Part shown: positions 1,209-29,379 of the stretch, piece after piece | Numbering within the stretch: the stretch's first letter is position 1 | Layout: each line of letters begins with the position of its first letter | Assembly: GCA_033764135.1 (NCBI GenBank) | Contig: JANRJE010000012.1 | Span: 67,290-131,289, forward strand | Direction of reading: 5' to 3' | From: Gemmatimonadales bacterium | GTDB taxonomy: Bacteria; Gemmatimonadota; Gemmatimonadetes; Gemmatimonadales; GWC2-71-9 | DNA length: 64,000 nt | Made by a program: the position numbers and the translations under genes | Notes under the pieces: generated by a model | Databases searched by the model: none | The model's input: only the letters and a program-made list of their open reading frames with translations | What the model was told of the DNA's origin: nothing

Positions 1209-1786
1209 TGCAGGGTTACAGCGACCGGATCAACCACGCCTTCACCTTTGCGGCCAAGCACTACGCACCGCGCGCCTCGGGGGCTGGTGCGCTCCAGTAC
1301 CTGGCAGCGCCTGCCAACGTCGCGGTGATCCTGGCTCGTCACGGCGCGGATGAGACGACCATAGTCGCCGGCATTCTCCACCACGTGCTGGAGGCAGCGG
1401 GTCATGACATCGACGACCTCACCCTCAAGATCGGCCAGAAGTTCGGGCCCGCCGTGCTCGGCGTGACCCTCGATGCAGTGACGCCTGCCGCCGCCACCGA
1501 CTGGCGTCACCGCAAGCGGGCAATCCTGACCCAACTGGTGACGATGGAACCACGCGCCCTCGACATCCGCTGCGCCGCCGAGATTCACGAGTGCGGCGGT
1601 GCGATCGCGCTGGTTGAGCGGCTTGGCCCGGAATATCTGGAAGTCCACGAATTCGCCCCCCCCCGGGAAGTGGTGGCCTGGTACAGCGATGCTGCCCAGG
1701 CGTTCGGCCGCCGCGTGGACTGGCCGACCCGGGCAATGCGTATCGAACTGGTCGCTCTGGCGAAACGGTTGGCGGCGCTGGTCTGA
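1208..1786 (+). CDS. HD-domain phosphohydrolase family protein
   Basis: 'AFTFAAKHYAPRASGAGALQYLAAPANVAVILARHGADETTIVAGILHHVLE' is an HD-motif region. A GTG at 1208 abuts the queE stop. The alternative ATG at 1145 would overlap queE by 64 nt, so the start is uncertain. Confidence 0.6.
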   Translation: MQGYSDRINHAFTFAAKHYAPRASGAGALQYLAAPANVAVILARHGADETTIVAGILHHVLEAAGHDIDDLTLKIGQKFGPAVLGVTLDAVTPAAATDWRHRKRAILTQLVTMEPRALDIRCAAEIHECGGAIALVERLGPEYLEVHEFAPPREVVAWYSDAAQAFGRRVDWPTRAMRIELVALAKRLAALV

Positions 1787-1817
1787 CAGCGGCCTGACCC
1801 GGGTATCTTTATTCCCG

Positions 1818-3563
1818 ATGCCGAACCCCATTGCCGCCGTCATTCGCTCCCGAATCGAGGAGGCGCTGGGTCATCGTTTTCGACTCGATGCCACCGCCGC
1901 GGTATCCGCTGAGCGGGTGCTGTTTCGCGCCCACGACCGGATCCTCAACCGGCCAGTCTCGCTGCGGGTGAACCTCGAGGCCGGGGCCGCAATCCGGAGC
2001 TGGTTCCTCAAGGAATCCGAGGCGCTCGCCCGGCTCGACCACCCTGCGATCCGGCACATCTATGAGGCGGGGGTGGTGGGGGAATTCGCCTACCGCGTCG
2101 GCAACTGGATCGAGGGAGAGTCGCTGGGCGACGCCATCCAGCGGGGGCCACGTGCCGTTCCCACTGTGCATGTCCTGGCGCGCGATCTCCTCACGGCGCT
2201 GGAGCATGCCCACGCGCACGGCATCATCATCCGGCGGATCGTACCGGCCTCGCTGCTCCTCGGCACCACCGGACGGGGGACGATCACCGACCTCCGCTTC
2301 TGCAACCTGACGCTGCCCGACATCCCCGCCACGGAGCAGCCGACCGGGTTGCCGTTCCTCGCTCCCGAAGTGCGCGACGGGACCGTTGGCGATCAGACCA
2401 GCGACATCTACACCACCGGTGCCATCCTGTACTTTGCCGTTACTGCGACCACACCGCCGCTCGATCCGTCGCAACTGGTGGCACCTCGGGAGCTGCGCGC
2501 CGTCATCCCCCGTGCGCTCGACCGGGTGATCCGCCGCGCCCTTGATCCTCGACCAACCGCCCGCTATCTCACGGCGGCCGAAATGCTGGAGGATTTCACC
2601 AACGACGCCGGTGAGTTTGTATCGGCGATGGTCGCTCTCCCCACGCTCGCCACCGAGCATGCCGACGGTCCCCATTGGGAAGCCCGTCTGCGGCGCGCGC
2701 TGGGCGACGACTACGAGCTGCTGGAACCGCTCGGCGAAGGCGGGTTCGGCAGAGTCTATCGGGTGCGTGATCTGCACTTGGAGCGCGAGGTGGCACTCAA
2801 GGTGCTCCACCCCCACTTGACCGCCGACCCGGGAGTGGTGGAACGGTTCCGCCGTGAGGCGCAACTGGCGGCGCGGCTCAATCACCCCAACATCGTCGAC
2901 ATCTACGACATCGCCGGCCGTTCCGGTCTGCTCTGGTACACGATGGAGATAGTCGACGGCCCCAACCTCGCCCAGCGGGTCGAGGCCGAAGGGGCGCTCT
3001 CGCTCGACCAGGTGCTGCGCCTGCTGCGCGAGGCGCTCGGCGCGATTGGACACGCCCACGCCCTGGGGCTGATTCACCGTGACATCAAGCCCGAAAACCT
3101 CCTGCTGGAGCGCGACGGCTCGGTGCGGATCACCGACTTCGGCCTTGCCCTGGCGCTGCGTGGCGACAGTGCCTTCGGGGGAGCGACCTCGCAGAGCGGC
3201 ACTCCGCAGTTCGCCTCGCCCGAACAGCTGCTCGGTGGCCAGGTCGATGTCCGCACCGACCTCTACTCGCTCGCCGCGGTCGCCGCCTACGCGCTGCTCG
3301 GCAGGGTCCCCTTTACCGGGGCCACCGTTCAACAGGTATTGGCCAAACAGACCACCGATGTGATTCCCGATCTCACTGCCGAACGACCGGAGGTGACGGA
3401 GGCGCTCGCCGCGGTGCTTTCCCGGGCACTCCGCAACGATGTCGAGGCGCGCTGGGCTTCGGTGGGTGAGTTTCGCGCAGCCCTCGAGAGTGCGGTCGAA
3501 AGCGGAGTTCGCCGACGCGGTGGCGAATTGGCGCGGTTGGCGGCGCGGTTGCTGGGCGGCTGA
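1818..3563 (+). CDS. Tandem-domain Ser/Thr protein kinase: N-terminal degenerate (pseudo)kinase domain plus C-terminal canonical Hanks kinase domain
   Basis: ATG at 1818. The C-terminal half has LGEGGFGRVY, VALKVL, HRDIKPENLLL, DFGLA and SGTPQFASPE. The N-terminal half is kinase-like (HPAIRHIYE, APEV) but lacks the Gly loop and has IIRRIVPASLLL and TDLR in place of HRD and DFG. Confidence 0.85.
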   Translation: MPNPIAAVIRSRIEEALGHRFRLDATAAVSAERVLFRAHDRILNRPVSLRVNLEAGAAIRSWFLKESEALARLDHPAIRHIYEAGVVGEFAYRVGNWIEGESLGDAIQRGPRAVPTVHVLARDLLTALEHAHAHGIIIRRIVPASLLLGTTGRGTITDLRFCNLTLPDIPATEQPTGLPFLAPEVRDGTVGDQTSDIYTTGAILYFAVTATTPPLDPSQLVAPRELRAVIPRALDRVIRRALDPRPTARYLTAAEMLEDFTNDAGEFVSAMVALPTLATEHADGPHWEARLRRALGDDYELLEPLGEGGFGRVYRVRDLHLEREVALKVLHPHLTADPGVVERFRREAQLAARLNHPNIVDIYDIAGRSGLLWYTMEIVDGPNLAQRVEAEGALSLDQVLRLLREALGAIGHAHALGLIHRDIKPENLLLERDGSVRITDFGLALALRGDSAFGGATSQSGTPQFASPEQLLGGQVDVRTDLYSLAAVAAYALLGRVPFTGATVQQVLAKQTTDVIPDLTAERPEVTEALAAVLSRALRNDVEARWASVGEFRAALESAVESGVRRRGGELARLAARLLGG

Positions 3564-16977: not shown

Positions 16978-17270
16978 CACTTCCCCCCCCCGTCCTTCTT
17001 GAACATCCGCAGCATCCGGTCGGTGACGGCATAGCCGCCCACCACGTTCATCATCGCGAAGGCGACCGCGCCCACGCCGAAGACGCTGCTGATCCAGCCG
17101 TGACCGCCGCCGGCGATGATCAGGGCGCCCACCACAGTGATCCCGGAGATGGCGTTGGACCCCGACATCAGCGGAGTGTGCAGAGTCGGCGGCACTCGCT
17201 GGATCAGTTCTATGCCGAGAAAGGTCGCGAGCGTGAAGATCGCGACGCCAATGATGATTCCTTCGCTCAT
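16977..17270 (-). CDS. pntAB: NAD(P) transhydrogenase subunit alpha part 2 (small membrane subunit)
   Basis: 'MSEGIIIGVAIFTLATFLGIELIQRVPPTLHTPLMSGSNAISGITVVGALIIAG', about 97 aa. ATG at 17270 overlaps the pntAA stop (ATGA). Confidence 0.9.
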   Translation of the reverse strand: MSEGIIIGVAIFTLATFLGIELIQRVPPTLHTPLMSGSNAISGITVVGALIIAGGGHGWISSVFGVGAVAFAMMNVVGGYAVTDRMLRMFKKDGGGK

Positions 17271-18370
17271 CAGGCCCCCTGGTGGCGCAGCGCGCCGTCG
17301 TGTGCGAGACACATCGCGCCGGTGATTTCGTCTTCGAGGTCGAGGTGCAGCCTGCCGTCCTTGCGCAGATGTTCCACCAGCGTCTGGACGTTGCGGGCGA
17401 ACATCTGCGAAGCGTGCAGCGGCATCGTGCTCGGCAGATTGAGCGGCCCGAGAATGGTGACCGGTCCGTGGACCACCGTCTCGCCGGCCCGGGTGAGTTC
17501 GCAGTTGCCGCCTGTTTCGGCCGAGACGTCGACGATCACCGCGCCGGGCTTCATCGCCTCGACCATCTCGCGGGTGATCAGGCGTGGTGCGGGACGGCCC
17601 GGAATCGCAGCCGTCGAGATCACCAGATCGGACTGCACGATCGCGCCGGAGACCGCCTCGAGCACCTTCTGTTGTTGCTCTTCTGCCAGTTCCCTGGCAT
17701 ACCCGCCCGCGGTCTCGGCGTCACCCGCGACCGCTTCGGGTGCCAGGAACTTGGCACCCAGCGAGAGCACCTGCTCCGCCGCCGCAGCGCGCACGTCGAA
17801 GCCGGTCACCACGCCGCCGAGACGGCGCGCAGTTGCGATTGCCTGCAACCCGGCGACGCCGGCACCGAGCACCAGCACCTTGCCAGGCGTGATCGACCCG
17901 GCAGCGGTGGTGAGCATCGGCAGGAAGCGCGGCATCGCACCTGCGCCGAGCAGCACCGCTTGATAACCCGCGACGGTGGCCTGGGAGGAGAGAATGTCCA
18001 TCGACTGCGCGCGGGTGATCCGGGGCACCCGCTCAAGCGCCAGCACGGTGATCCGGCGGCGAGCCAGCGCTTCGAGCGCGTCACGACTGTCGGGACCGAG
18101 CAGCGCGGCGAGCGCGGCACCTTCGGGCACCCGCGCGGCCTGTGCCGGATCGGGGCGACGCACGCCAAGCACCAGATCGGCCGCATCGAGTTGGGGTACG
18201 ATGGTGGCACCGACGGCGAGATACTCATCGTCGGAGTGGAAGGCAGCGAGACCGGCACCCGCCTCGACGGCGATGCTGTCCCCCCCCTTGATCAGCTTGG
18301 CAGCCGCATCGGGGGTGAGAGCGACGCGTCGTTCGCGTGGAGCGGTTTCCTTCAGGACTCCAATGTGCAT
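17270..18370 (-). CDS. pntAA: NAD(P) transhydrogenase subunit alpha part 1 (alanine dehydrogenase-like dI domain)
   Basis: 'MHIGVLKETAPRERRVALTPDAAAKLIKGG...VLVLGAGVAGLQAIATARRLGGVVTGFDVR' is the dI Rossmann domain. ATG at 18370. Confidence 0.9.
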   Translation of the reverse strand: MHIGVLKETAPRERRVALTPDAAAKLIKGGDSIAVEAGAGLAAFHSDDEYLAVGATIVPQLDAADLVLGVRRPDPAQAARVPEGAALAALLGPDSRDALEALARRRITVLALERVPRITRAQSMDILSSQATVAGYQAVLLGAGAMPRFLPMLTTAAGSITPGKVLVLGAGVAGLQAIATARRLGGVVTGFDVRAAAAEQVLSLGAKFLAPEAVAGDAETAGGYARELAEEQQQKVLEAVSGAIVQSDLVISTAAIPGRPAPRLITREMVEAMKPGAVIVDVSAETGGNCELTRAGETVVHGPVTILGPLNLPSTMPLHASQMFARNVQTLVEHLRKDGRLHLDLEDEITGAMCLAHDGALRHQGA

Positions 18371-18588
18371 CAGCGTGAGACTCCTCCGAAAAGGACCGGC
18401 CGTCAGGGGTGCTGCCGCAGCGAGGGAACGGGTGGAGGGACATCCCCACCGGTGGCTCGCGTCCCGCAAGCTACCGGGCGAACGGTAGACTTTCAACGGA
18501 GGAGGCAGTAGCCTCCCCGCATGACGCCGCCCGGAAGCACCGGAACGCCGGTTGAAAATCGGCCGACCCCCTCAGCGGGAAAATCCTG

Positions 18589-19509
18589 ATGCGGGAGGTC
18601 GCCTATGGCTTCGCGCCCGGCTCAATAGGCAATGTGGGAGCCGGACTCGACATCCTCGGACTGGCCGTCGCGGGGGCCGGCGACGAGACAACCATCCGTC
18701 TGACCGATGCTCCCGGGATCGAGGTGATCGACCCGGGACACCCCGACCTGCCGAGCGAGGCCGAGCGCAACAGCGCAGCGATCGCAGCGGCGGCAGTGTT
18801 CCGGAAAGTCGGCATCTCACCCCGGGTCACCATCGCAGTGCAGAAGGGGCTGCCCCTTTCCGGCGGTCAGGGTGGCAGCGCTGCATCGGCTGTGGCGGGT
18901 GCGGTGGCGGCGAATCAGCTGACCGAAGGCGGGCTGGACGCGGCGGCTCTGCTCGAATGCGCTCTGGCCGGGGAGACCGTCGTCTCGGGGCGACACGCCG
19001 ACAACCTGGCTCCGTCACTACTCGGCGGCCTGGTCCTGATCCGGAGCCTGGATCCGATGGATTTCGTCGCCCTGCCAGTGCCGGGCAGTCTCAGCGTGGT
19101 ACTGGTCCGCCCCGCAATGCAGATGCAGACCCGGACCGCACGCGCCGTGCTGCCGACGACGGTGTCGCGCGAACTGGCCATCGCCCAGGCGGCCAATGTC
19201 GCCGCGATGGTGGCCGGAGCGTGCCTCGGCGATCTGCGCCTGCTGGGTCGCGGGGTCAGCGACTGGATTGCCGAACCGGCGCGGGCACCGCTCCTGCCAG
19301 GGTTTCTCGCAGCCAAACAAGCGGCACTGGACGCCGGCGCGCTGGGCAGCTCGATCAGCGGTGCCGGTCCCACTGCATTTGCACTGGTCGACAGCGCCCA
19401 AGTCGCCGACGCGGTCGCCGCTGTGATGGTGGCCGCCTACGCCGCGGCCGGACTTGCTGCCACTGCCCGCATCGCGGCAATTGACCGTGAGGGCGCCCGG
19501 GCATGGTGA
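18589..19509 (+). CDS. thrB: Homoserine kinase (GHMP family)
   Basis: The GHMP motif 'KGLPLSGGQGGSAASAVAGAVAAN' and a thrB-like N-terminus 'APGSIGNVGAGLDILG'. ATG at 18589. Overlaps the thrC start. Confidence 0.85.
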   Translation: MREVAYGFAPGSIGNVGAGLDILGLAVAGAGDETTIRLTDAPGIEVIDPGHPDLPSEAERNSAAIAAAAVFRKVGISPRVTIAVQKGLPLSGGQGGSAASAVAGAVAANQLTEGGLDAAALLECALAGETVVSGRHADNLAPSLLGGLVLIRSLDPMDFVALPVPGSLSVVLVRPAMQMQTRTARAVLPTTVSRELAIAQAANVAAMVAGACLGDLRLLGRGVSDWIAEPARAPLLPGFLAAKQAALDAGALGSSISGAGPTAFALVDSAQVADAVAAVMVAAYAAAGLAATARIAAIDREGARAW

Positions 19510-20789
19510 ACGGATCAAGCTCGCCTCGGCAGATCTGCGACAGCTGCGGCAACGCCAGTGACGGCAGTGATGCGGCCCCGCGCTGCCGGCAATGCGGCGG
19601 CCTGCTCGCGCTGGTGCATCCCCCCCCCACACTGCGCGGCACCGCGCTCCGTGCCACCTTTGCCGACGCCTGCTGCGCCCGGCCGTCGCGCACCGCGTCG
19701 GGGGTATGGCGCTTCGGGGCGATCGTCCATCCCGACGCCGTTGATCAGGCGGTGAGCCACCCCGAGGGGAACACCCCACTGCTCCAGCGCGAAGCGCTCA
19801 GCGCGTGGACCGGGGTGACCGATCTCCTCCTCAAGCACGAAGGCCACAATCCCACCGGCTCCTTCAAGGATCGGGGGATGACGGTGGCTGTCACCCAGGC
19901 CCGGCGCATTGGCGCGAGGGCGATCGCCTGCGCCAGCACCGGGAACACCGCCGCGTCACTGGCCGCCTACGCTGCGCAGGCTGGGCTCCCGGGTGTGGTC
20001 TTCATTCCGGAGGGACAGGTCGCCCTCGGCAAACTGACCCAGTCGCTGGCCTATGGGGCACGTACCCTGATGATCGCGGGGGACTTCGACGCCTGCCTCA
20101 GGTTGCTGGAGGAGAGTGCCGATGCGCTGGGAGTCTACGTCGTCAATTCGATCAATCCCTTCCGGTTGGAGGGACAGAAGACGATTGTGCTTGAGCTGAT
20201 GCAGCAACTCGACTGGGAGGTGCCCGACTGGATCGTCCTCCCCGCAGGCAACCTCGGCAACACCGCGGCGTTCGGGAAGGCGGTCGCCGAGGCGCATGAC
20301 TGGGGCCTGATTTCCCGTCTCCCCCGACTGGCCTGTGTACAGGCCGCCGGCGCAGCCCCGTTCGCGGCAGCATTCGCTCGTCAATTCGACCGCTTGATCG
20401 CCGTCCGCCCCGAGACCATCGCCACCGCAATCCGGATCGGGGCGCCGGCCAGCTACGAGCGGGCGGTTCGCGCCATCCAGCAGACCGACGGCACGGTCAT
20501 ATCATGCAGTGATGATGAAATCATGGCGGCAAAGATGGAGATCGATCGGAGCGGTGTCGGAGCCGAACCGGCCAGCGCTGCCGCCGTCGCGGGAGTGCGT
20601 CAACTCCGCCAAGCGGGGATCATCCGCTCATCTGACCGAGTGGTGGCGGTGCTGACCGGACACATTCTGAAGGACCCCGGGATCCTCCAACAGCTTCACC
20701 AGGGTGACGGTCCCATCGCTCTGGGGGCGAACAGGCCGATCAAGGTCGCCGCCACTCTGGAGGCCATCGAGGCGGCACTCGCTGGCTGA
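19503..20789 (+). CDS. thrC: Threonine synthase (with N-terminal zinc-ribbon)
   Basis: 'HEGHNPTGSFKDRGMTVAVTQA' is the PLP lysine motif. The N-terminus has 'CDSCGN...CRQCGG'. ATG at 19503 overlaps the thrB stop. Confidence 0.9.
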   Translation: MVNGSSSPRQICDSCGNASDGSDAAPRCRQCGGLLALVHPPPTLRGTALRATFADACCARPSRTASGVWRFGAIVHPDAVDQAVSHPEGNTPLLQREALSAWTGVTDLLLKHEGHNPTGSFKDRGMTVAVTQARRIGARAIACASTGNTAASLAAYAAQAGLPGVVFIPEGQVALGKLTQSLAYGARTLMIAGDFDACLRLLEESADALGVYVVNSINPFRLEGQKTIVLELMQQLDWEVPDWIVLPAGNLGNTAAFGKAVAEAHDWGLISRLPRLACVQAAGAAPFAAAFARQFDRLIAVRPETIATAIRIGAPASYERAVRAIQQTDGTVISCSDDEIMAAKMEIDRSGVGAEPASAAAVAGVRQLRQAGIIRSSDRVVAVLTGHILKDPGILQQLHQGDGPIALGANRPIKVAATLEAIEAALAG

Positions 20790-21026
20790 GCCGCATGGGC
20801 TTGGGTTGGCACCGACGCCTCAGCTGTTGCCTTGGCACGACAATGGCGCTAGAAATCGTCGTGCGCACACCACAGCCAGCTCATTCAGCGGCCCTACCGA
20901 GCTGCTTCGACAACCCACAACCCGTTGCGAGTCAACGAGTTGAGAATATCGAGGCAAGCCCGGCACCCGCCTTGCCCATCAGTGGCCTGCGGGCCCATTC
21001 TCCCTGGGGCCCCTCAAGAGGAGCCG

Positions 21027-21803
21027 ATGCCCAGACTTTCTGTGAAGGTTATTGCCGCAGGTGCTGCGATCCTGCTCACCACTACCCCGGCCCGCGCCGA
21101 CGACCCGGAGAGCGGCTTCCCGACCGACTTCGGGCTCGCCACGCCGCTGGTCGCCACGGGGAACAACATGGTGGTCTCCTACTTTGGCTGGGAGGAGACC
21201 ACGGTGTTCGGCCATACGCTGTGGGCATTCACCACCGAGCAGTTGGTGGCCAACCAGAGCTGCTTTGGCTGGTCGGTGACGGGGAGTTGCCTGGCCAACA
21301 ACCAGATCGTGGGAGAGAACATCGCCACCAAGAGCTACGGGGCGCAGGCCAACCCGTTCCTCGGCAGTCCGACCACTTCGAACTTTGCCTGGACAGCGGG
21401 CACCGAAGTGGTGTTCGGGTTGATGGTTCAGCAGGCGATCAACAACCAGGATCTTTCGCAGGGGTTCGGCTACAACTGGTTCTTCTCGGGCGACCCGCTC
21501 CGCAATTCGGCGACCGACGGCTTCGCACATCTGGCATTCTTCGGGACCGGGGGAGTGCCGGGCGACGACGGCGTCGGCATCATCCCGGGTACCGAGGGGA
21601 AGTTCTTCTTCGGCTTCGAGGACGTCGCCTACGAGTTCAGCGACTGGGACTTCGACAACGCGATCTTCCAGGTCGATTTCAACTCGATCAATCCGCCGAC
21701 CGACGTGGTGCCCGAGCCGACTACCATGACGCTGCTGGCCACCGGGCTGATCTCGCTGGCGGCTGCCGGCCGACGGCGCCGGAAGTCGCCACCTCCCGCC
21801 TGA
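21027..21803 (+). CDS. PEP-CTERM sorting-domain secreted protein
   Basis: Signal peptide 'MPRLSVKVIAAGAAILLTTTPARA' with an RBS-like AAGAGGAG upstream. The C-terminus 'VVPEPTTMTLLATGLISLAAAGRRRRK' is a canonical PEP-CTERM motif plus TM helix plus basic tail. Confidence 0.85.
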   Translation: MPRLSVKVIAAGAAILLTTTPARADDPESGFPTDFGLATPLVATGNNMVVSYFGWEETTVFGHTLWAFTTEQLVANQSCFGWSVTGSCLANNQIVGENIATKSYGAQANPFLGSPTTSNFAWTAGTEVVFGLMVQQAINNQDLSQGFGYNWFFSGDPLRNSATDGFAHLAFFGTGGVPGDDGVGIIPGTEGKFFFGFEDVAYEFSDWDFDNAIFQVDFNSINPPTDVVPEPTTMTLLATGLISLAAAGRRRRKSPPPA

Positions 21804-21831
21804 CGCTCAGGCACTCAGGGGGGGGCACGCC

Positions 21832-23340
21832 ATGATCGACGCGCTCCGGACGAGACCGGCCCTCCAGGCTGGTCTCGTCGCACTTCTGGTCGGCGCCTTG
21901 GTGCAGTGGTGGATGCAGCGCGCCGATCTGGTGTTGGCGTTCTGGGATGCCCAGGCGCACCTCGACATCGCCCGGCGGGTATGGGATTCCACCACTCCCG
22001 GCGTCCAGATGCTCGGCACGGTGTGGCTGCCGGTGCCGCACCTGCTCTACCTCCCCTTCACGCTGGTTGATCAATGGTGGTGGAACGGGCTGGCGGGCGG
22101 GCTGGTCGGGCTGGCCGCATTCGGGGCGACGGCAATGGCGGCATTCGCCATCGTTCACCGGCACACCGGCTCAACCAGATGGGGGTGGTTGACCGCCGCC
22201 ATCGTGATCGCCAATCCGAGTCTCGCCTACCTGCAGACCACGGCGATGACCGAGCCGATCCTGCTCGCCTTTCTGACCGGCTCCGTGTGGGTCCTGGACC
22301 GTTGGCTCGGCGATCGCGACCGGAGCGGTCACTTGCTGCTCTCCGGCGTGCTGGCGGCGCTGGCCGTGGGGTCTCGCTACGATGGCTGGTTCTACGCAGC
22401 CATTGCCGCCCTGCTGGTGCTGGCGCACTCCCGCCGGGCTGGTCCGACGCTCCGGTTTGCGGCGCCGGTGGCGGTGATGGTGGGGCTCTGGCTGGCGTAC
22501 AACGCGATCTATTTTGGCGATCCGCTGGAGTTCCAGCGGGGGATCTGGTCGGCCGAGAGTCAGCAGGCGGCCCTGGCCGCCTCCGGGTTGCTGCCGACCA
22601 AGGGCGCCCCGCTCATCTCGCTGGGGTACTACGCCGGGGCGACGGCACTGACGGTCGGGGTGATCCTCGCCCCCCTGGGCCTGCTCGGAGCGGCCCTCGC
22701 CCTGGGCTCACCCGGCCGCTGGGCGCTCCTCCTGCTCTGGACGGCGCTGCCGTTCAACCTGCTGGCGTTGTGGGGCGGACAGAGTGTCATTGCGCTCCCC
22801 TGGACCACCCCCGAGGGGATGCTCAACGTGCGCTACGGGGTCATGCTGATTCCGGCCATCGCCGTCTCGATCGGTCTTGGTGGGGCGATGATCGGACGCT
22901 TCGGACCGCGCTGGCACCGGGGCACGTTCTTCGCGTTGCTGGCCCTGATTGGTGGACAATCCGCATGGATGATCGCCGATGCCCCGGTCAGAGTCGGGGC
23001 GCTGCGAGAGGGGCTGGCGATCCGCGATGGCGATGCGGCCCAGATGAACGCCTCACGCTGGTTGGCAGCCCACTATGATCGGGGGCGCATCCTGGTGGCG
23101 CCGGCGGTCAATCTCTCGCCGCGGAGCCGCATCTCATTGCGGGACCGGATCTATCCGTGGACCTGGGAATTGGGTCCCCGGGCGCTGGCAGCGCCAGCGG
23201 AGACGGTTGACTGGGTGTTGGTCGATCGGCGCGCCGCCACCGACGAGGTGGCCCGGGCGTTGGCGGTCGATCACGATTTCGAGAAGCAGTTCGACCGGGT
23301 GTTCGAAGAACGCGAGTTGGAAATCTGGCGCCGCCGATGA
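21832..23340 (+). CDS. Polytopic membrane protein, GT-C-like (ArnT/PMT-type) putative glycosyltransferase. Paralog of 27182-28561
   Basis: About 11 TM segments followed by a soluble C-terminal domain. It shares the pattern 'D..AHL.IAR.V.D....G...LG..WLPLP.LL.LP' with the downstream paralog. Stop overlaps the next ATG (ATGA). Confidence 0.65.
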   Translation: MIDALRTRPALQAGLVALLVGALVQWWMQRADLVLAFWDAQAHLDIARRVWDSTTPGVQMLGTVWLPVPHLLYLPFTLVDQWWWNGLAGGLVGLAAFGATAMAAFAIVHRHTGSTRWGWLTAAIVIANPSLAYLQTTAMTEPILLAFLTGSVWVLDRWLGDRDRSGHLLLSGVLAALAVGSRYDGWFYAAIAALLVLAHSRRAGPTLRFAAPVAVMVGLWLAYNAIYFGDPLEFQRGIWSAESQQAALAASGLLPTKGAPLISLGYYAGATALTVGVILAPLGLLGAALALGSPGRWALLLLWTALPFNLLALWGGQSVIALPWTTPEGMLNVRYGVMLIPAIAVSIGLGGAMIGRFGPRWHRGTFFALLALIGGQSAWMIADAPVRVGALREGLAIRDGDAAQMNASRWLAAHYDRGRILVAPAVNLSPRSRISLRDRIYPWTWELGPRALAAPAETVDWVLVDRRAATDEVARALAVDHDFEKQFDRVFEERELEIWRRR

Positions 23341-25394
23341 CGCGGCAGACGAGGAGATCGATCGTGACATTCACCACATCTCGCACCCCTGCCGGGATCG
23401 CCCTGCTGTTGTGCATCTCGCTCCTGGCGGGATGCAACACGCCTCCGGCTGCGCCCGAGGTGGCCGGTCCGCCGGCGCCGACCCCGGCAGAGATGGATTC
23501 CCTGTTGGCAGGGTCCGGCGACAGTGCCGCCGCCGCGATGCCTGCCATCACGGCCCGCGTCGACTCGGCCTCCGCTCCGACAGCGCTCACCCTCCGCGAC
23601 ATCGGACTCAAGGACGGCGTGACGCTGTTCGGCGCTACCGTAAATGCGGCGTTGACCATTCCGGTGAACAGCGGCCTCCGTCCGACCCGGTTGGTGCTCG
23701 ACCTCACTCCCACACCATTGATGCCGGGTGCAACGCTCTCGCTGAGTCAGGGCGGCCGCCTCCTCTCGCAGCACTTGCTGACCGACACCACAACGCAGGT
23801 GACTCTCCCGCTCACTGATCTGATTGTCGACGCGGGTCGCGCCACGGTGATGCTGGGGCTCCGCATCGGCGACATCGAGGTCTGTGCCGCCGAGGTGACA
23901 TATCGCACCGCGGTCCAGCCGACCAGCCGGATCGAGTATGCCGGCACCCCGCTTCCCGTTGGCGGCATCAACGATTTCTTCGCCCCCTGGCTCAGCCGGG
24001 TGGTCTTCTACCTGCCGGACGATCCGTCGCTCGATGCCGCGCAGGCGGCGCTCGACGCGGCGGCGTTCGTCAATCGACGCTATCGCGGCATGACGACGCG
24101 CTTCGAGATTCTGCCTCTGCCTCCCGAGGGAACCGCACTGAGCGAACCGGCCGCGGACGAACGCGCCCTGTTCTGGTCACCTTCGGGGCCGACGATGGTG
24201 GTGAGACCGGGGGGGGGACGCGGCACGGTGTTGTCGATCGCCTCTCGTCGTGATGCCCGTCAGCTCTTTGCCCTGGCCGACGGCAGCCAACTCGTGCCGG
24301 TGGGCGGTTTCAGTGCCACCACGGTCCGACCCGAACTGATCGGCCCCGATGCCCGGGGGACACTGTCGTTCGGAGAGATGGGACTCGGGGCGGAGACCGT
24401 CGAGGGCAGCTCGGTCATCGTCGCCAGCTATCCGTTCTCCCTGGCCGACTTCGGTCGACAGGTCACCCCCCGCGCGGTCCGGCTGCTGGTCCACCACAGC
24501 ATGCTGCCGCAGGATGGTCGGGGGACGATGCGGGTGACCCTCAACGGTCAGTTGATCGAGTCGGTGCGACTCGACCGCACCGAGGTCGACCGTACGGTAT
24601 CGCTGCCGGGCCACTTGCTGGCTCGCGAGAACCGTCTCGACGTGCGCTTTCATGTGGTGCTCGGGGAGGGACGCTGTGTGCTCGGCGGACCGACATTCGC
24701 GGCCACCATCGACGATCGCTCGACCTTCGTGCTCACCGGCGAGATGCCGTTGCCACCTTCCTTCGATCGCTTCCCCGCGGCGTTCGTGCCCGCCTTCTCC
24801 GTGCTGATGGAACCGCGGGATCGCTTCCGGGTGGAACTCGCCGCGCGCGCCGTCGGCGCGATGCAGCAGACCACGACGACGGCGCTGGCTCCGTTCGTGG
24901 TCCGCGACCGGGCGGAGGTGCGCGGCTCGCTCTTGGCCATCGGCAACAGCACGCTCGCTACCGAGCTCGATGCCCCGATTGCGGGCGACGGATTCCGGTT
25001 GCGTGACCTGCAGGGCCGGGTCTGGGACGAATACGCCCCGACCGAATCGTTCGCTGCAATGCAGGCCTACTCGGCCGATGGTCGCGACATCCTGCTCCTC
25101 CATCACACCCGCGACGACGGCGCCCCGCTCGATGCCATGCTGCGCGAGTCACTGGCGGCGTACGGCTGGTTCGGAGTGCACGGCGACCTCGCCCTCCGCG
25201 GTCCCGACGGCCCGACCACGGTGATCACCGCTGCCAATTCCGGCTGGATCATCGACCGCACCGTGGCCGATCCGCCCACGATGTGGGAGCGCTGGCGCTC
25301 GGTGATCTTCATTGCGGCGGGACTGACTCTGCTGATCCTGGCCATCTGGCTCTTCCCGCGGGTGGTCCGGCGTGAGCTCGACACGACTGGGTGA
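23337..25394 (+). CDS. Bitopic periplasmic lipoprotein (lipobox LLAGC plus C-terminal TM anchor). Possibly a BcsB-like synthase partner subunit
   Basis: 'MTRQTRRSIVTFTTSRTPAGIALLLCISLLAGC' is a lipoprotein signal. The C-terminus 'WRSVIFIAAGLTLLILAIWLFPRVVRR' is a TM anchor. Its end overlaps the GT2 gene. A BcsB relationship is inferred from topology and context only. Confidence 0.6.
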   Translation: MTRQTRRSIVTFTTSRTPAGIALLLCISLLAGCNTPPAAPEVAGPPAPTPAEMDSLLAGSGDSAAAAMPAITARVDSASAPTALTLRDIGLKDGVTLFGATVNAALTIPVNSGLRPTRLVLDLTPTPLMPGATLSLSQGGRLLSQHLLTDTTTQVTLPLTDLIVDAGRATVMLGLRIGDIEVCAAEVTYRTAVQPTSRIEYAGTPLPVGGINDFFAPWLSRVVFYLPDDPSLDAAQAALDAAAFVNRRYRGMTTRFEILPLPPEGTALSEPAADERALFWSPSGPTMVVRPGGGRGTVLSIASRRDARQLFALADGSQLVPVGGFSATTVRPELIGPDARGTLSFGEMGLGAETVEGSSVIVASYPFSLADFGRQVTPRAVRLLVHHSMLPQDGRGTMRVTLNGQLIESVRLDRTEVDRTVSLPGHLLARENRLDVRFHVVLGEGRCVLGGPTFAATIDDRSTFVLTGEMPLPPSFDRFPAAFVPAFSVLMEPRDRFRVELAARAVGAMQQTTTTALAPFVVRDRAEVRGSLLAIGNSTLATELDAPIAGDGFRLRDLQGRVWDEYAPTESFAAMQAYSADGRDILLLHHTRDDGAPLDAMLRESLAAYGWFGVHGDLALRGPDGPTTVITAANSGWIIDRTVADPPTMWERWRSVIFIAAGLTLLILAIWLFPRVVRRELDTTG

Positions 25395-27204
25395 CCTTCT
25401 GGTTGCCGAGGGGGTAATCACCCCTCAGCAACTGGAGACCGCCCTCACGCAGCAGCAACGGACCGGCGAACGCCTCGGCCGGCTGCTGCTCATCCTGGGG
25501 TTTGTGCGTCGGCTCGACTTGGCGCGCGCCCTCGCAACCCAGTGGGGTCGGCCGTTCGTGACGATCGAGCCCGGCAGCGTGAACGTGGCGGTGGCCCATC
25601 GCTTCCCACTGGAGGCCACCATCGCGCTCCGGGCCGTGCCGCTTAGTGATGATGGCAAAACGGTCGTGGTGGCAACCGCGGAGGAACCGGGCGATGCACT
25701 GCGCGAGGCGCTGTCGGTAGTCTATCCCGGCCGCGCACTGGATCTCCGGATCACCACGGAATGGGACATCGATCGCGGCATCGGATTGGCGCACCGTCGC
25801 AAGGTGGTCGACACCTCGATCTACGGCCTCTATTTCCGCGACCAGTCGGAGAGCGCCTTCACCGTCTTCACCCTGGCCCAGTATCTGGTGCTGGTCGCCT
25901 TGGTGGGCGGGGTGCTCGCGTCGCTCTGGGCCTGGCCGCTGCAGACCCTGCTGTTGCTCAATGTGCCGATCACTCTCTTCTTTCTGGCGGTGGTGGTGTT
26001 CAGGACTGTCGTCGGCGTCTCGGGCGCCGGCGCGGAGACTGCAATCACGGTGGGAGATGAACGGATCCGGTCGATTGACCCACTCGAGTTGCCGATCTAT
26101 ACCATCCTGGTGCCGGTCTACAAGGAACGCCGGGTCATCGGTCGACTGCTCGAATCGCTGGCCGCGCTCGACTACCCGGCTGACAAGCTCGACATCATCA
26201 TCCTCTTCGAGGAGGAGGATCTCGAGACGCTCGCCGCAGCCAAGGCGGCCGCCCCGCAGGCCAATGTCCGCTTCCTGATCGTCCCGGCCGGCGAGCCGCA
26301 GACCAAGCCCAAGGCGTGCAACGTCGGACTGCTGTTCGCACAGGGCGAGTATCTGGTGATCTACGACGCCGAGGATCGTCCCGATCCGGATCAGCTCAAG
26401 AAGGCGCTGCTGGCCTTTCAGCAGGGGCCTGCCGAACTGGCCTGCGTGCAGGCGGCGCTCAACTACTACAACTGGGACGAAAACTTCCTGACCAGGATGT
26501 TCACCCTCGAGTATTCGTTCTGGTTCGACTACCTGCTGCCCGGTCTGGACCGGCTGCGGCTGCCGATTCCGCTGGGCGGCACCAGCAATCACTTCCGCAC
26601 CAGCGTGCTGCAGGAGCTGGGCGGCTGGGACCCGTTCAACGTCACCGAAGACGCCGACCTCGGCATCCGCGCCGCAATGCACGGCTATCGCGTGGGGATC
26701 GTCAACTCCACCACGTACGAGGAGGCCAACACCCATCTCGGCAACTGGATCAGGCAGCGCTCGCGCTGGATCAAGGGTTACATGCAGACGGCGCTGGTCT
26801 TTCTCAGGAATCCGGTCGATCTGGTGCGCCGCGCGGGGATCAGGCAGACCATCGGCTTCACGCTGCTGATTGGCGGCACCCCGCTGGTATTCCTCTTTCA
26901 GCCCGTCGCGGTGGTGCTGACGATCATCTGGCTGCTGACCCGCACCCAACTTTTCGCGCCGCTCTTTCCGCCATGGCTGCTCTACCTGTCGCTGTTCAAC
27001 CTGCTGATCGGCAACGCGCTGGCGATCTACGTCAACATGTTCGCGGTCTTCAAGCGGCGGCTGCACGGGCTGGTGCTCTTCTCGCTGCTGAACCCGCTGT
27101 ACTGGCTGCTGCATTCCATCGCGGCCTACAAGGCACTGGGTCAGCTCTTCACGCGACCGTACTACTGGGAGAAGACCGTCCATGGCCTCACCCGCCATTC
27201 CTGA
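25372..27204 (+). CDS. Processive family-2 glycosyltransferase (cellulose/PNAG-synthase-like, QxxRW) with an N-terminal MshEN/T2SSE_N-type cyclic-di-GMP-binding domain
   Basis: The N-terminus 'RLGDLLVAEGVITPQQLETALTQQQRTGERLGRLLLILGFV' fits the MshEN c-di-GMP-binding motif. The GT2 core has 'ILVPVYKE', 'DAEDRPDPD', 'TEDADLG' and 'QRSRWIKG' (QxxRW). There are about 6 TM helices. GTG start at 25372. Confidence 0.8.
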   Translation: MSSTRLGDLLVAEGVITPQQLETALTQQQRTGERLGRLLLILGFVRRLDLARALATQWGRPFVTIEPGSVNVAVAHRFPLEATIALRAVPLSDDGKTVVVATAEEPGDALREALSVVYPGRALDLRITTEWDIDRGIGLAHRRKVVDTSIYGLYFRDQSESAFTVFTLAQYLVLVALVGGVLASLWAWPLQTLLLLNVPITLFFLAVVVFRTVVGVSGAGAETAITVGDERIRSIDPLELPIYTILVPVYKERRVIGRLLESLAALDYPADKLDIIILFEEEDLETLAAAKAAAPQANVRFLIVPAGEPQTKPKACNVGLLFAQGEYLVIYDAEDRPDPDQLKKALLAFQQGPAELACVQAALNYYNWDENFLTRMFTLEYSFWFDYLLPGLDRLRLPIPLGGTSNHFRTSVLQELGGWDPFNVTEDADLGIRAAMHGYRVGIVNSTTYEEANTHLGNWIRQRSRWIKGYMQTALVFLRNPVDLVRRAGIRQTIGFTLLIGGTPLVFLFQPVAVVLTIIWLLTRTQLFAPLFPPWLLYLSLFNLLIGNALAIYVNMFAVFKRRLHGLVLFSLLNPLYWLLHSIAAYKALGQLFTRPYYWEKTVHGLTRHS

Positions 27205-28561
27205 GCCGCGGGCCGCTCCGTGGGTGCGGGCGACCCTGGCGCTGGCGGTAGCACTGCCGCTCATTCTGGCCGCGCTGCTGCTGGTCGGCGACGGCTGGCT
27301 GAGCGACACCCACGGCGCCTTCCTGCACCGGGTGCGCTTCGCCGTGGATCGCGGTCGCCTGGAACTGCTCGGCTTCGAGTACCCGCCGTTGCCGTTCCTG
27401 CTGCTGACGATCTGGCCGTCGGTCGTGATGCCGCTGGTGCTCGGGGCGCTGGGCCTGGTGGGGCTTGGCTGGCTGATCACCGGCGAATGCACCGACCGTC
27501 GCTCGATGCTGCCGTTGGTGCTTCTGGTGTGTGCCACGTGGACGCCTATCGGCATCCACTTGGTGGCAAGCGACTTCAACGAGACGATCGGCTTGCTGGT
27601 GCTCTTCCTGGCCTGGCGTTATTACCGGCGCTGGTGGTCCACGCGACAGACCGTGTACGGCCTGTACACCGGCATCCTCCTGGGCGTGGCGTTCTACACC
27701 TCGCCGCTGGGGCTGGCGCTGGCGTTGTTTGCCGGAGCCCTGCTGCCGCTGCTCTTTCCGCGGCTCCAGATTCCGCCGTTCTCCTCGCAACTGGTGCTGC
27801 TGGCGTTTCCCGGGATGGCGGCCACCGCCACCTGGGCTTACCTCTCGTGGGTCTTCGTGGGGCGAGTGGCCTTTCCCTTCACGCCCTGGGAACCGCAGTC
27901 CCCGACCATTCTCACCATTCTGAGCTGGACCGTGCCGTACCTGGTGGTCTCCGCGTTGGCGATGCTCCGCCGTGAGGCGCAGACGGCCGGCGTGCTCCTG
28001 CCACTGCTGCTGCTGGCGTTGGCCGACCGGATCGGCTGGCATTTTTCGCTCGCCTATGCGGTGCTGCTGGTGACGCTGGTGGCAATAGTGGCGCTGCCCC
28101 GCGACCTTCATCGGGTGACCCGGATGGCCGTCGGCAGCGTGGCCGTCGGACAGGCGCTGGTGGCGTGGTGGCTGGTACCATGGCCCACTCTGGTGCCGCG
28201 TGATCTGGCTGCGCGCGCCGTGGCCGAGGCGCTGGCGGGTGCCCCCCCCCGGAGCATTCTCATCGATGACCGGTACGCCGAGACACTGCTCAAGTGGTCA
28301 TCATCGATGCGGCCCTATCTCACGACCAGGGACACCGGTTTCGAGGTGGCGCTGGCCCAACCGGGAAGCCAGGTTCGCTACGTCGTCGCCACAGCCGACG
28401 ACGAGGGACTCACGCTCGATGCCGACCGGCGACCACCGCCGGGATTCCTTCTGGAGTGGAGCTGGGCGGGCTACACCTTGTGGCGCCGTCCGGATGCGCC
28501 GCCCCGACCGGTGCGCTTCGATGCGCTTCCCGATCCTTCCGTGCTGGAGAGTTCACCATGA
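27182..28561 (+). CDS. Polytopic membrane protein, GT-C-like. Paralog of 21832-23340
   Basis: ATG at 27182. More than 10 TM segments with a soluble C-terminal region. Paralogous signature to the first membrane protein. Stop overlaps the next gene's ATG (ATGA). Confidence 0.65.
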   Translation: MASPAIPEPRAAPWVRATLALAVALPLILAALLLVGDGWLSDTHGAFLHRVRFAVDRGRLELLGFEYPPLPFLLLTIWPSVVMPLVLGALGLVGLGWLITGECTDRRSMLPLVLLVCATWTPIGIHLVASDFNETIGLLVLFLAWRYYRRWWSTRQTVYGLYTGILLGVAFYTSPLGLALALFAGALLPLLFPRLQIPPFSSQLVLLAFPGMAATATWAYLSWVFVGRVAFPFTPWEPQSPTILTILSWTVPYLVVSALAMLRREAQTAGVLLPLLLLALADRIGWHFSLAYAVLLVTLVAIVALPRDLHRVTRMAVGSVAVGQALVAWWLVPWPTLVPRDLAARAVAEALAGAPPRSILIDDRYAETLLKWSSSMRPYLTTRDTGFEVALAQPGSQVRYVVATADDEGLTLDADRRPPPGFLLEWSWAGYTLWRRPDAPPRPVRFDALPDPSVLESSP

Positions 28562-29379
28562 GGCGTTGGTGTTTCCTGATCACCGTTGCTGCCGGCGCGA
28601 TGCTGGCGTTGCCGTCGCCCGCGAAGGCGCAATGGACCCTGCCCAAAGGTGGCTGGTTCATGTCCCACAGCTTCAATGTCGGCTCCTTTCCCGATCGCTT
28701 CTCGGCAGGGCCGGGTGCCACGGAGAACGAGCTCGACAAGGTCGACTACGGACTCTATTTCCTGTACGGTTGGCGCGAGGGAACCAGCGTCGGACTGGGA
28801 CAGGGATTCTCCCGCCTGGAGCAGACCTTCAACGGCACCACCACCACCAACACCGGCTTCGGTTCGACCGGCTTCTTCATCATGCATCGTCTGGCCCAGG
28901 GGAAGGCCGGCATCCTCTCGATCCAGCCGCGGATCGACCTGCCACTCCTGTTCGACAACGACGAGCGCCCGGCGCTGGGGCCGGTAGAGGCCGACGCCGA
29001 GATCCGCCTGCTGTACGGCAACGGCTTCGGCATCGCGGGGACGCGGGGCTTCATGAACGCGTCGGCGGGCATCAGCACGATCCGCGCTGGCAACGACGAA
29101 ATCCGCTATGACGGCACGGTGGGGATCGACGCTCACCCCCGTTTGCTGTTGATGGGTCAGGCCTTCAACGTGATCGGGCTCGCCGATGGGGGGGGGATCG
29201 CCTACAGCGCCACCAAGCTCGGCGCTTCGGCGGTATTCCGGGCCTCGCCGACGGTCGGACTCCTGATAGGGTATTTTCGGGGCGTCTCGGGGAAGAACAC
29301 CTCACGGGAGCGGACCTTCAGCATCGGGATCTGGCTCTCCCACACCCCGCAATCGCCCGTGGTCCCGCCGCAGCAATAG
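28558..29379 (+). CDS. Outer-membrane beta-barrel (porin-like) protein
   Basis: ATG at 28558 gives the signal peptide 'MRRWCFLITVAAGAMLALPSPAKAQ'. Alternating amphipathic beta-strand pattern with aromatic girdle residues. Last gene of the operon. Confidence 0.65.
   Translation: MRRWCFLITVAAGAMLALPSPAKAQWTLPKGGWFMSHSFNVGSFPDRFSAGPGATENELDKVDYGLYFLYGWREGTSVGLGQGFSRLEQTFNGTTTTNTGFGSTGFFIMHRLAQGKAGILSIQPRIDLPLLFDNDERPALGPVEADAEIRLLYGNGFGIAGTRGFMNASAGISTIRAGNDEIRYDGTVGIDAHPRLLLMGQAFNVIGLADGGGIAYSATKLGASAVFRASPTVGLLIGYFRGVSGKNTSRERTFSIGIWLSHTPQSPVVPPQQ

Follow-up and report, generated by a model that had tools for sequence, protein, structure and literature searches.

Introduction

Escherichia coli NfrB is a cyclic di-GMP (c-di-GMP)-activated exopolysaccharide (EPS) synthase of the N4 phage receptor glycan system (PMC8669469). 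It binds c-di-GMP through an MshEN domain, and residues of both the MshEN and the glycosyltransferase domains are needed for its function (Junkermeier and Hengge 2021, PMC8669469). The published MshEN motif consists of two tandem copies of RLGxxL(V/I)xxG(I/F)(L/V)xxxxLxxxLxxQ that are separated by a 5-residue spacer and together form a 53-residue module (PMC5013675). The domain can be fused to glycosyltransferases (Wang et al. 2016, PMC5013675), and Supplementary Table 4 of that study lists both 'Glyco_trans_2_3 - MshEN', represented by E. coli NfrB, and 'MshEN - Glyco_trans_2_3', represented by Rhodobacter sphaeroides Rsph17029_0522 and found in Actinobacteria, Firmicutes and Proteobacteria. 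Here we describe a protein of the latter order, encoded by the open reading frame (ORF) 25372-27204 on the forward strand of a 64,000-nucleotide stretch of a Gemmatimonadales genome (contig JANRJE010000012.1; hereafter the window), in which an MshEN domain precedes a membrane glycosyltransferase of family 2 (GT2).

Related cassettes have been reported in other bacteria. A set of bcsB-like, xagB, xagC and xagD genes occurs in stalk-forming iron oxidizers (Kato et al. 2015, PMC4643136), and the xag operon of Xanthomonas oryzae contributes to biofilm and is up-regulated on deletion of the HD-GYP phosphodiesterase RpfG (PMC3609779). Sfz2, encoded beside the BcsB-like Sfz1, is described as an N-terminal type II secretion system (T2SS) E-like domain (T2SSE_N, IPR007831) joined to a GT2 domain with DxD, TED and QxxRW (Koeksoy et al. 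2021, PMC8250860). The IPR007831 domain of Sfz2 is the MshEN domain; the Sfz2 study read it as a piece of an EpsE-like secretion ATPase, searched for RxxD and RxxxR, and did not recognise MshEN (PMC8250860). In Sinorhizobium, the mixed-linkage beta-glucan synthase BgsA is BcsA-like, and a domain other than PilZ subjects it to control by c-di-GMP (PMC5567048). As detailed below, the gene in the window probably encodes the catalytic, polymer-translocating subunit of a xag/sfz-type synthase-dependent EPS system that is controlled by c-di-GMP via MshEN instead of PilZ.

Results

The N-terminal domain is a predicted c-di-GMP-binding MshEN module

Annotated in the sources as 'glycosyltransferase family 2' or 'hypothetical', the synthase gene may be taken to encode the predicted c-di-GMP-sensing catalytic subunit of a six-gene EPS operon of an uncultured lineage of Gemmatimonadales. 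It begins with GTG and extends over 610 codons (610 aa), precisely the ORF delimited in an earlier sequence-only reading of the window. The GC content at third codon positions (GC3) is 0.85 in a window of 66% GC, which identifies the ORF as a real gene, and the start site is conserved, since orthologues in Gemmatimonadales have the same beginnings (VNSTRLGD, VSSIRLGE). An antisense ORF of 756 aa (25309-27579, reverse strand) was rejected as a spurious product of high GC, its GC3 being 0.69 vs 0.82-0.85 in the genes of the cluster. The AlphaFold2 model of the synthase, built from 28 homologs, has a predicted local distance difference test score (pLDDT) of 84.7 and a predicted TM-score (pTM) of 0.82. 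The gene and its parts are as follows.

25372..27204, forward: MshEN-GT2 synthase of the XagB/Sfz2 type, with Foldseek matches to BcsA, hyaluronan synthase, chitin synthase and MshE
25384..25542, forward: MshEN_N, 53-residue module (residues 5-57; motif I 5-28, linker 29-33, motif II 34-57), from strict motifs and NF053729
25543..25782, forward: MshEN_C subdomain (residues 58-137), from PF05157, the 5HTL alignment through residue 130 and superposition of the model on 5htl_B
25873..26007, forward: N-terminal transmembrane (TM) hairpin (residues 168-212), predicted to join the cytoplasmic MshEN to the cytoplasmic glycosyltransferase domain, from hydrophobicity and model helices 168-187 and 189-220
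26098..26721, forward: GT-A catalytic domain (residues 243-450) with DAED at 332-335 and TED at 425-427, from Pfam Glyco_tranf_2_3, Glyco_trans_2_3 and Glycos_transf_2
26755..26769, forward: QRSRW (QxxRW) processivity motif on an interface helix (residues 462-466), from motif and model, aligning with the QRxRW region of BcsA
26839..27054, forward: C-terminal membrane helices (residues 490-561), then weaker amphipathic helices at 565-594, from hydrophobicity and model, aligning with the membrane region of NfrB
27166..27183, forward: WEKTVH, family-invariant C-terminal motif (residues 599-604) and candidate gating-loop-like element, from conservation and the NfrB alignment

Both 24-residue motifs at the N-terminus fit the strict consensus RLGxxL[VIL]xxGx[IVL]xxxxLxxALxxQ, one spanning residues 5-28 and the other, after the canonical 5-residue linker, residues 34-57, and this tandem match is far beyond chance. 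The NCBIfam model NF053729 ('c-di-GMP_motif'; cyclic di-GMP-binding domain, MshE-related) covers residues 5-57 over its full length (1-53) at 65.3 bits (cutoff 38; E 3e-18), and Pfam MshEN (PF05157) covers residues 58-137 with 28.5 bits against a cutoff of 23.1. A phmmer search of all PDB sequences matches the domain to Thermus PilF, to Vibrio cholerae MshE in complex with c-di-GMP (5HTL) and to PilB ATPases; the alignment to 5HTL spans residues 4-130 without gaps (E 6e-15), and 28 of 54 residues of the binding module are identical. In V. cholerae MshE (VcMshE), the residues that stack on the ligand, form hydrogen bonds with it or shape the helical turns are R9, L10, G11, G18, L25, L29, Q32, R38, L39, G40, G47, L54, L58 and Q61 (Wang et al. 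2016, PMC5013675). All 14 positions are kept in the synthase, as R5, L6, G7, G14, L21, L25, Q28, R34, L35, G36, G43, L50, L54 and Q57. The sequence-only reading, which had recognised a tandem MshEN motif at this N-terminus and called for its alignment to Vibrio MshE, is thus borne out: the two strict motifs are present and no motif residue is lost.

In the AlphaFold2 model, the N-terminal domain folds into helices 6-12, 18-31, 35-41 and 47-57 and, beyond them, a part of mixed alpha/beta structure, which correspond to the four-helix MshEN_N and the alpha/beta MshEN_C, respectively. Foldseek superposes it on the V. cholerae MshE-c-di-GMP complex (5htl_B) with a TM-score of 0.81 and a root-mean-square deviation of 2.7 Å over 137 columns, at 32% identity. 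Taken together, by sequence and model the N-terminal domain is a complete MshEN module of the c-di-GMP-binding type, and binding of the ligand is predicted.

The catalytic core is a predicted processive GT2 with NfrB-like organisation

Residues 243-523 of the synthase match GT2 Pfam families. Among 80 homologs, the best 80 of at least 594 encoding loci in a scan of one genome per species, the DAED and TED motifs are invariant (80/80) and QxxRW is kept in 79/80. With the whole model as query, Foldseek puts E. coli and Rhodobacter BcsA and the Xenopus and Chlorella-virus hyaluronan synthases first, with E values of 1e-14 to 1e-11 and target-normalised TM-scores of 0.55-0.61 for the hyaluronan synthases, followed by plant CesA and yeast chitin synthase. 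In a search of PDB sequences with a profile of the glycosyltransferase part only, BcsA is the nearest solved sequence (E 1e-17), the match taking in the GT-A domain, QxxRW and the TM helices that come next. These results support the assignment of the catalytic part as a processive membrane GT2 of the BcsA/hyaluronan-synthase type, for which polymer synthesis is predicted. Equivalog models for cellulose synthase failed, scoring 62.5 vs 699.1 bits (TIGR03030) and 43.3 vs 992 bits (PRK11498); judged by these profiles, the protein is not a cellulose synthase orthologue.

Hydrophobicity and the model place two TM helices ahead of the catalytic domain, at residues 168-187 and 189 to about 212. Behind it lie two long, clearly hydrophobic helices (490-523 and 534-561); the segment 565-594 adds one or two that are weaker and probably interfacial. 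For this side of the core the sequence-only reading had counted four TM helices. BcsA has eight TM helices. As regards PilZ, the synthase gives no Pfam match at E <= 0.1 and contains no RxxxR...DxSxxG pattern, and the protein ends 6 residues past WEKTVH. The two helices preceding the core, the D, DxD, TED and QRSRW signatures and the lack of PilZ had all been anticipated in the sequence-only reading. Its term 'cellulose-synthase-like' stands for the fold and the motifs, which are of the BcsA/hyaluronan-synthase type, and falls for orthology with cellulose synthase.

The closest characterised relative in organisation is NfrB. BLASTP aligns residues 237-604 of the synthase with residues 66-475 of E. 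coli K-12 NfrB (23% identity, E 4e-6), that is, over the whole glycosyltransferase and membrane core of about 370 residues, and the MshEN domains of the two proteins share 29% identity. The NfrB equivalog NF008411 (cyclic di-GMP-activated glycosyltransferase) failed at 47.5 vs 1170 bits, with the MshEN region alone matched. The core, as far as alignment can tell, is closer in organisation to NfrB than the sequence-only reading supposed, and on the same basis the synthase is best described as an NfrB-type core with the MshEN sensor at the opposite terminus, before the TM hairpin. The MshEN-bearing terminus would also be cytoplasmic.

The C-terminal WEKTVH motif aligns with WDKTTH of NfrB, whose MshEN domain begins about 15 residues after it. 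W599, K601 and T602 are invariant in all 80 homologs and are thus conserved like the catalytic motifs. In BcsA, the gating-loop motif FxVTxK contacts uridine diphosphate and is released on binding of c-di-GMP to PilZ (PMC8892547). WEKTVH shows a similar pattern, aromatic-x-x-T-x-basic, at a similar place, after the last membrane helices, and the glycosyltransferase-only profile alignment to BcsA ends before it; we infer a gating-loop-like role for the motif as a candidate function.

The MshEN-GT2 family is large and unevenly conserved at the c-di-GMP site

Homologs of the synthase are abundant. A word-indexed search returned at least 8,000 matches, of which the best 120 are all about 610-680 aa long and carry the same Pfam set, and an exhaustive search of 50%-identity representatives found 2,673 clusters at E <= 1e-30; the majority of its best matches start at query residue ~5 and hence take in the MshEN region. 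The best 80 loci are spread over Gemmatimonadota, Chloroflexota, Actinomycetota, Cyanobacteria, Bacteroidota, Firmicutes, Thermotogota, Aquificota, Synergistota and Pseudomonadota. BcsB-like neighbours recur across phyla: tblastn places one directly upstream of the synthase homolog in 26/80 loci, and Pfam identifies one in 19/52 of the upstream ORFs. Four relatives of 1,000-1,320 aa (P0133, P0135, P0143 and P0145) carry 3-6 tandem MshEN domains before the same GT2 core and are in this respect comparable to the multi-MshEN PilF of Thermus; the idea that relatives of about 1,300 aa are BcsB-synthase fusions was discarded, the Pfam scan giving 3-6 tandem MshEN domains and no BcsB portion.

Conservation of the c-di-GMP site was scored as the number of the 14 VcMshE positions kept, read off the alignment of the 80 homologs. 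This position-wise score replaced a count of tandem motifs by regular expression (20/80), which had mixed true degeneration with over-strict matching. The scores by lineage are as follows.

Gemmatimonadota: 13/14 in all three
Chloroflexota: 11-13 of 14
Aquificota, Thermotogota and Synergistota: 11-13 of 14
Firmicutes: 11-14 of 14
Pseudomonadota: 5-13 of 14; five of seven keep at least 12
Actinomycetota: 1-14 of 14, mixed
Cyanobacteria (two homologs): 6-7 of 14
Bacteroidota/Ignavibacteria (n=27; loci in the range L031-L080, for example L033 8001-9812): 4-8 of 14

With 14/14, the window protein is among the most canonical members. The scores of Bacteroidota/Ignavibacteria and Cyanobacteria suggest that c-di-GMP binding was lost throughout these lineages although the domain was kept.

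The synthase gene lies in a conserved six-gene operon

Six genes of the cluster lie on the same strand with intergenic gaps of +28, -4, -23, -23 and -4 nucleotides, and these short or overlapping junctions indicate one translationally coupled operon. Besides the synthase gene, it comprises the following.

20925..21803, forward: secreted PEP-CTERM/DUF4114 protein, the first gene, a 292-aa ORF; PF07589 at 25.3 vs a cutoff of 20.7 (residues 262-285), weak DUF4114, GC3 0.84
21832..23340, forward: GT-C-like (PMT/ArnT-type) polytopic membrane protein, 502 aa; Pfam PMT (PF02366) at 28.1 vs a cutoff of 22.7, multiple hydrophobic helices, GC3 0.84
23337..25394, forward: BcsB-like periplasmic lipoprotein with a C-terminal TM anchor, 685 aa; Pfam BcsB (PF03170) at 35.2 vs a cutoff of 21 (residues 82-539), lipobox-like 'LLAGC', TM helix 655-673
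27182..28561, forward: polytopic membrane protein of GT-C fold in the XagC/Sfz3 position, 459 aa; AlphaFold2 pLDDT 82.8, pTM 0.83; overlaps the synthase end by 23 nucleotides
28558..29379, forward: secreted 273-aa protein with the signal peptide MRRWCFLITVAAGAMLALPSPAKAQ, the last gene; its ATG overlaps the previous stop and is preceded by GGAGAG

The BcsB-like gene overlaps the start of the synthase gene by 23 nucleotides, and the synthase/BcsB pair sits between the two GT-C-type membrane proteins. The presence of GT-C enzymes within a synthase-dependent EPS operon suggests periplasmic modification of the polymer. The 459-aa protein has no Pfam or NCBIfam match and is 'hypothetical' in all sources; Foldseek matches its model to ALG12, STT3, ArnT, AftA and PglB at TM-scores of 0.5-0.59. 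A homolog follows the synthase gene in Gemmatimonadales and Chloroflexota loci, and a near-copy (99% identity) is annotated from a Gemmatimonadales metagenome-assembled genome. For the first gene, the true start is probably an internal Met ahead of 'PRLSVKVIAAGAAILL'. A 346-aa ORF at 20795-21835 (forward strand) was dismissed as a neighbouring gene: it is a non-coding frame with a GC3 of 0.53 and an Arg-rich translation unlike a protein, the real gene there being 20925-21803. The 273-aa secreted protein has no Pfam match and may be an outer-membrane or periplasmic export component; Novosphingobium (L068) and Nitrospirillum (L078) each have a homolog of 29% identity some 2.5 kb downstream of their synthase homolog. 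No glycoside-hydrolase (Sfz4/XagD-like) gene, bcsC or bcsZ was detected in the operon.

The cluster is conserved in three Gemmatimonadales genomes (L001, L002 and L003), which keep the PEP-CTERM gene upstream, the PMT/ArnT-like product at 55-71% identity and the 273-aa protein. The PMT/ArnT-like product is also conserved in L081, on a 919-kb contig of another Gemmatimonadales genome whose synthase is 79% identical. When L081 1-14008 is compared with 17270-29379 of the window, the cluster is seen to occupy an unchanged chromosomal place, behind an AlaDh_PNT gene and thrA-thrB-thrC-like genes, which points to a stable, vertically inherited chromosomal locus rather than a mobile island. The flanks of the cluster are unrelated housekeeping genes, with a GHMP kinase and a pyridoxal phosphate-dependent enzyme upstream and an ABC-F protein downstream.

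Promoter and terminator scans gave matches at chance level, all of them inside coding sequence. Three ORFs of the window with an 'EALxR' pattern were considered as EAL candidates and set aside, as they encode a protein kinase, an M3 peptidase and an AlaDh_PNT (alanine dehydrogenase/transhydrogenase-family) protein. Elsewhere in the window, and unlinked to the synthase, are a Ser/Thr kinase (1599-3563), peptidases of the S8, S9/DPP-IV and M3 families, and a PntB transhydrogenase subunit.

Discussion

Proposed mechanism and points that weigh against it

For a c-di-GMP-controlled synthase of this architecture, we propose the following course of events. The cytoplasmic N-terminal MshEN domain would bind one c-di-GMP through its two tandem 24-residue motifs, and the TM hairpin would bring the chain back to the cytoplasm, where the GT-A domain, with its DAED, TED and QRSRW motifs, would polymerise a nucleotide-sugar. 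The growing chain would then thread a channel that the synthase builds from its own TM helices and reach the BcsB-like partner, which would receive it in the periplasm while anchored by its C-terminus. By analogy with NfrB and BcsA, c-di-GMP binding would most likely lift an autoinhibition of the active site, and this relief may act via the invariant WEKTVH loop next to the active site; as an outcome, polymer would be made only at high c-di-GMP. The two GT-C-fold proteins would probably modify or branch the polymer in the periplasm by using polyprenyl-phosphate sugars.

Several observations speak against this proposal or narrow it. The L-G core in both motifs is kept by 40/80 homologs and is lost in at least one motif in Cyanobacteria and in all 27 Bacteroidota/Ignavibacteria, in which the N-terminal domain is nevertheless retained; some role of the domain that is independent of c-di-GMP must therefore exist. 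No GGDEF, EAL, HD-GYP or PilZ gene is found among the ~41 likely genes of the 64-kb window, and no Rfam family reaches its gathering score there, hence no c-di-GMP riboswitch and no tRNA-type feature near the operon, so that c-di-GMP signalling in this organism is assumed. The link from MshEN to the WEKTVH loop is one that we infer, the sequence alignment to BcsA stopping before the motif. Literature searches returned no experimental study of an N-terminal-MshEN synthase, only NfrB, which has the reverse order, and catalogue entries. The tie to Xanthomonas XagB draws on the JGI/KEGG names of close homologs and on published descriptions rather than on direct alignment.

Alternative explanations

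The retention of degenerate domains bears directly on the idea that MshEN is present here but does not respond to c-di-GMP, serving instead as a scaffold, oligomerisation or partner-binding module like the degenerate GspE/XpsE-type N-domains, with the synthase regulated in another way. Half of the 80 members, including the 27/27 Bacteroidota/Ignavibacteria, fit such a role, XpsE has lost c-di-GMP binding by comparable substitutions (Wang et al., PMC5013675), and the window is without c-di-GMP turnover genes. However, the 14/14 key positions of this protein and the 11-13 of 14 in its Gemmatimonadales and Chloroflexota relatives would be difficult to account for if ligand binding were not under selection, the NF053729 score lies well over its cutoff, and NfrB provides a precedent; we therefore consider ligand independence of this member unlikely. 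Alternatively, c-di-GMP may bind without switching catalysis on, either inhibiting the enzyme or controlling its assembly, its localisation or its interaction with the BcsB-like or GT-C partners. In line with this possibility, a triple Leu mutant of MshE that is unable to bind c-di-GMP was constitutively active (PMC5013675), so that the coupling of MshEN to its output is not understood, and the domain sits here at the terminus opposite to that in NfrB, from which the allosteric route may differ. BcsA, PGA synthase and NfrB are nevertheless all described as ligand-activated (PMC8669469, PMC8892547). High c-di-GMP also generally favours matrix production, and a non-activating role is accordingly improbable in our view.

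Two further explanations concern the product. If the protein were a true cellulose synthase, a BcsA orthologue in which PilZ had merely been swapped for MshEN, its product would be beta-1,4-glucan; BcsA is indeed the best solved relative by profile and among the best by fold, and a BcsB-like partner is encoded next to it. Yet the CelA/BcsA equivalogs (TIGR03030, PRK11498) failed by an order of magnitude, the signatures DAED and WxKTxH and the end-to-end alignment are NfrB-like, the TM set of 2 N-terminal and 2-4 C-terminal helices is below the eight of BcsA with a size like that of hyaluronan synthase, and the operon contains two GT-C proteins and neither bcsC nor bcsZ, all of which makes cellulose synthesis quite unlikely. 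A non-processive lipid glycosyltransferase in place of a polymer synthase is suggested by the name 'beta-monoglucosyldiacylglycerol synthase', carried by one homolog (P0118) and by a xagB-like gene of Ferriphaselus (PMC4643136). This name looks like an automatic similarity annotation, and it is opposed by the conservation of TED (80/80) and QxxRW (79/80), by the processive synthase-translocase fold, by the BcsB-like partner, and by the genetic tie of the xag genes to biofilm EPS (PMC3609779); we regard this explanation as very improbable. A c-di-GMP-controlled polymer synthase thus remains the reading that we favour. It agrees with the proposal of the sequence-only reading that MshEN replaces PilZ on a BcsA-type synthase for c-di-GMP control, a prediction now supported by the full MshEN domain, the BcsA/hyaluronan-synthase-type GT2, the lack of PilZ and the overlapping BcsB-like gene.

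Implications

The novelty that the sequence-only reading had implied does not hold, as the architecture was catalogued in 2016 (PMC5013675), the reverse fusion NfrB has been characterised (PMC8669469) and the family is very large. The synthase is one more ordinary representative of a family that is known but has been little studied, and current concepts are unchanged because MshEN-controlled synthases are already established through NfrB. The interest of the locus lies rather in what it represents. N-terminal-MshEN synthases are abundant, occurring in full length in at least 594 species genomes and making up 2,673 clusters at 50% identity, and they are candidates for producing the organic stalk matrix of iron oxidizers and a biofilm polysaccharide of Xanthomonas; reading their N-terminal domain as MshEN gives a testable link from c-di-GMP to these stalk and biofilm structures. 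To read this domain as a c-di-GMP receptor also corrects the view in the sfz literature, the Sfz2 domain being known here by description. Lineages with intact and with degenerate motifs provide a natural comparison set for the role of the domain with and without ligand, and the window protein is a clean, canonical representative of this abundant synthase class.

A broader proposal, which we regard as possible but somewhat doubtful, is that the xag/sfz-type cassette, comprising a BcsB-like protein, an N-terminal-MshEN synthase and a GT-C-fold glycosyltransferase, constitutes a distinct, very widespread and biochemically unstudied class of c-di-GMP-gated polysaccharide machine, in which the sensor would act on an NfrB-like WxKTxH loop from the opposite end, the GT-C protein would remodel the polymer in the periplasm, and the Bacteroidota members would be uncoupled from c-di-GMP. 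If this were true, the loss of the site with the domain kept in Bacteroidota would mean that the machine has been uncoupled from the second messenger more than once.

Comparison with known systems

NfrB and the window protein are built from the same two domains, and their cores are homologous end to end, including DAED, TED, QxxRW and W-D/E-K-T-x-H. The order differs, being GT2 - TM - MshEN in NfrB and MshEN - TM hairpin - GT2 - TM in the window protein. The partners differ as well: E. coli NfrB is encoded in the operon nfrB-nfrA-ybcH alongside NfrA, an outer-membrane protein, and YbcH, whereas the partners in the window are the BcsB-like protein, two GT-C proteins and a secreted protein.

The nearest likeness in both order and context is to XagB of the Xanthomonas xagABCD operon and to Sfz2/Sfb2, in which MshEN is likewise followed by GT2, a BcsB-like gene lies upstream and the gene downstream encodes a membrane protein of about 460-500 aa; JGI names close homologs of the synthase (56-78% identity) 'glycosyltransferase XagB'. 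Distinct from the xag and sfz cassettes, the locus adds GT-C-like and PEP-CTERM genes upstream and encodes the 273-aa secreted protein where no Sfz4/XagD-like gene was detected, and its host belongs to Gemmatimonadota whereas the published hosts are Proteobacteria.

With BcsA-BcsB, the locus shares a processive membrane GT2 carrying D, DxD, TED and QxxRW, a BcsB-type partner with a C-terminal TM anchor, and a fused c-di-GMP receptor domain, which in the window protein is a predicted one. This receptor is MshEN at the N-terminus rather than PilZ at the C-terminus, the TM helices are fewer, and BcsC and BcsZ are missing. In comparison with the original hosts of MshEN, the MshE, PilB and PilF ATPases of type IV pili and T2SS, the N-terminal fold is the same and the c-di-GMP contact residues are identical, whereas the output is a membrane glycosyltransferase instead of a cytoplasmic hexameric ATPase. 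Finally, BgsA also couples a non-PilZ c-di-GMP sensor to a BcsA-like synthase, but this sensor is a distinct C-terminal domain and not MshEN; BgsA thereby illustrates that fitting BcsA-type synthases with alternative sensors of c-di-GMP is an established theme.

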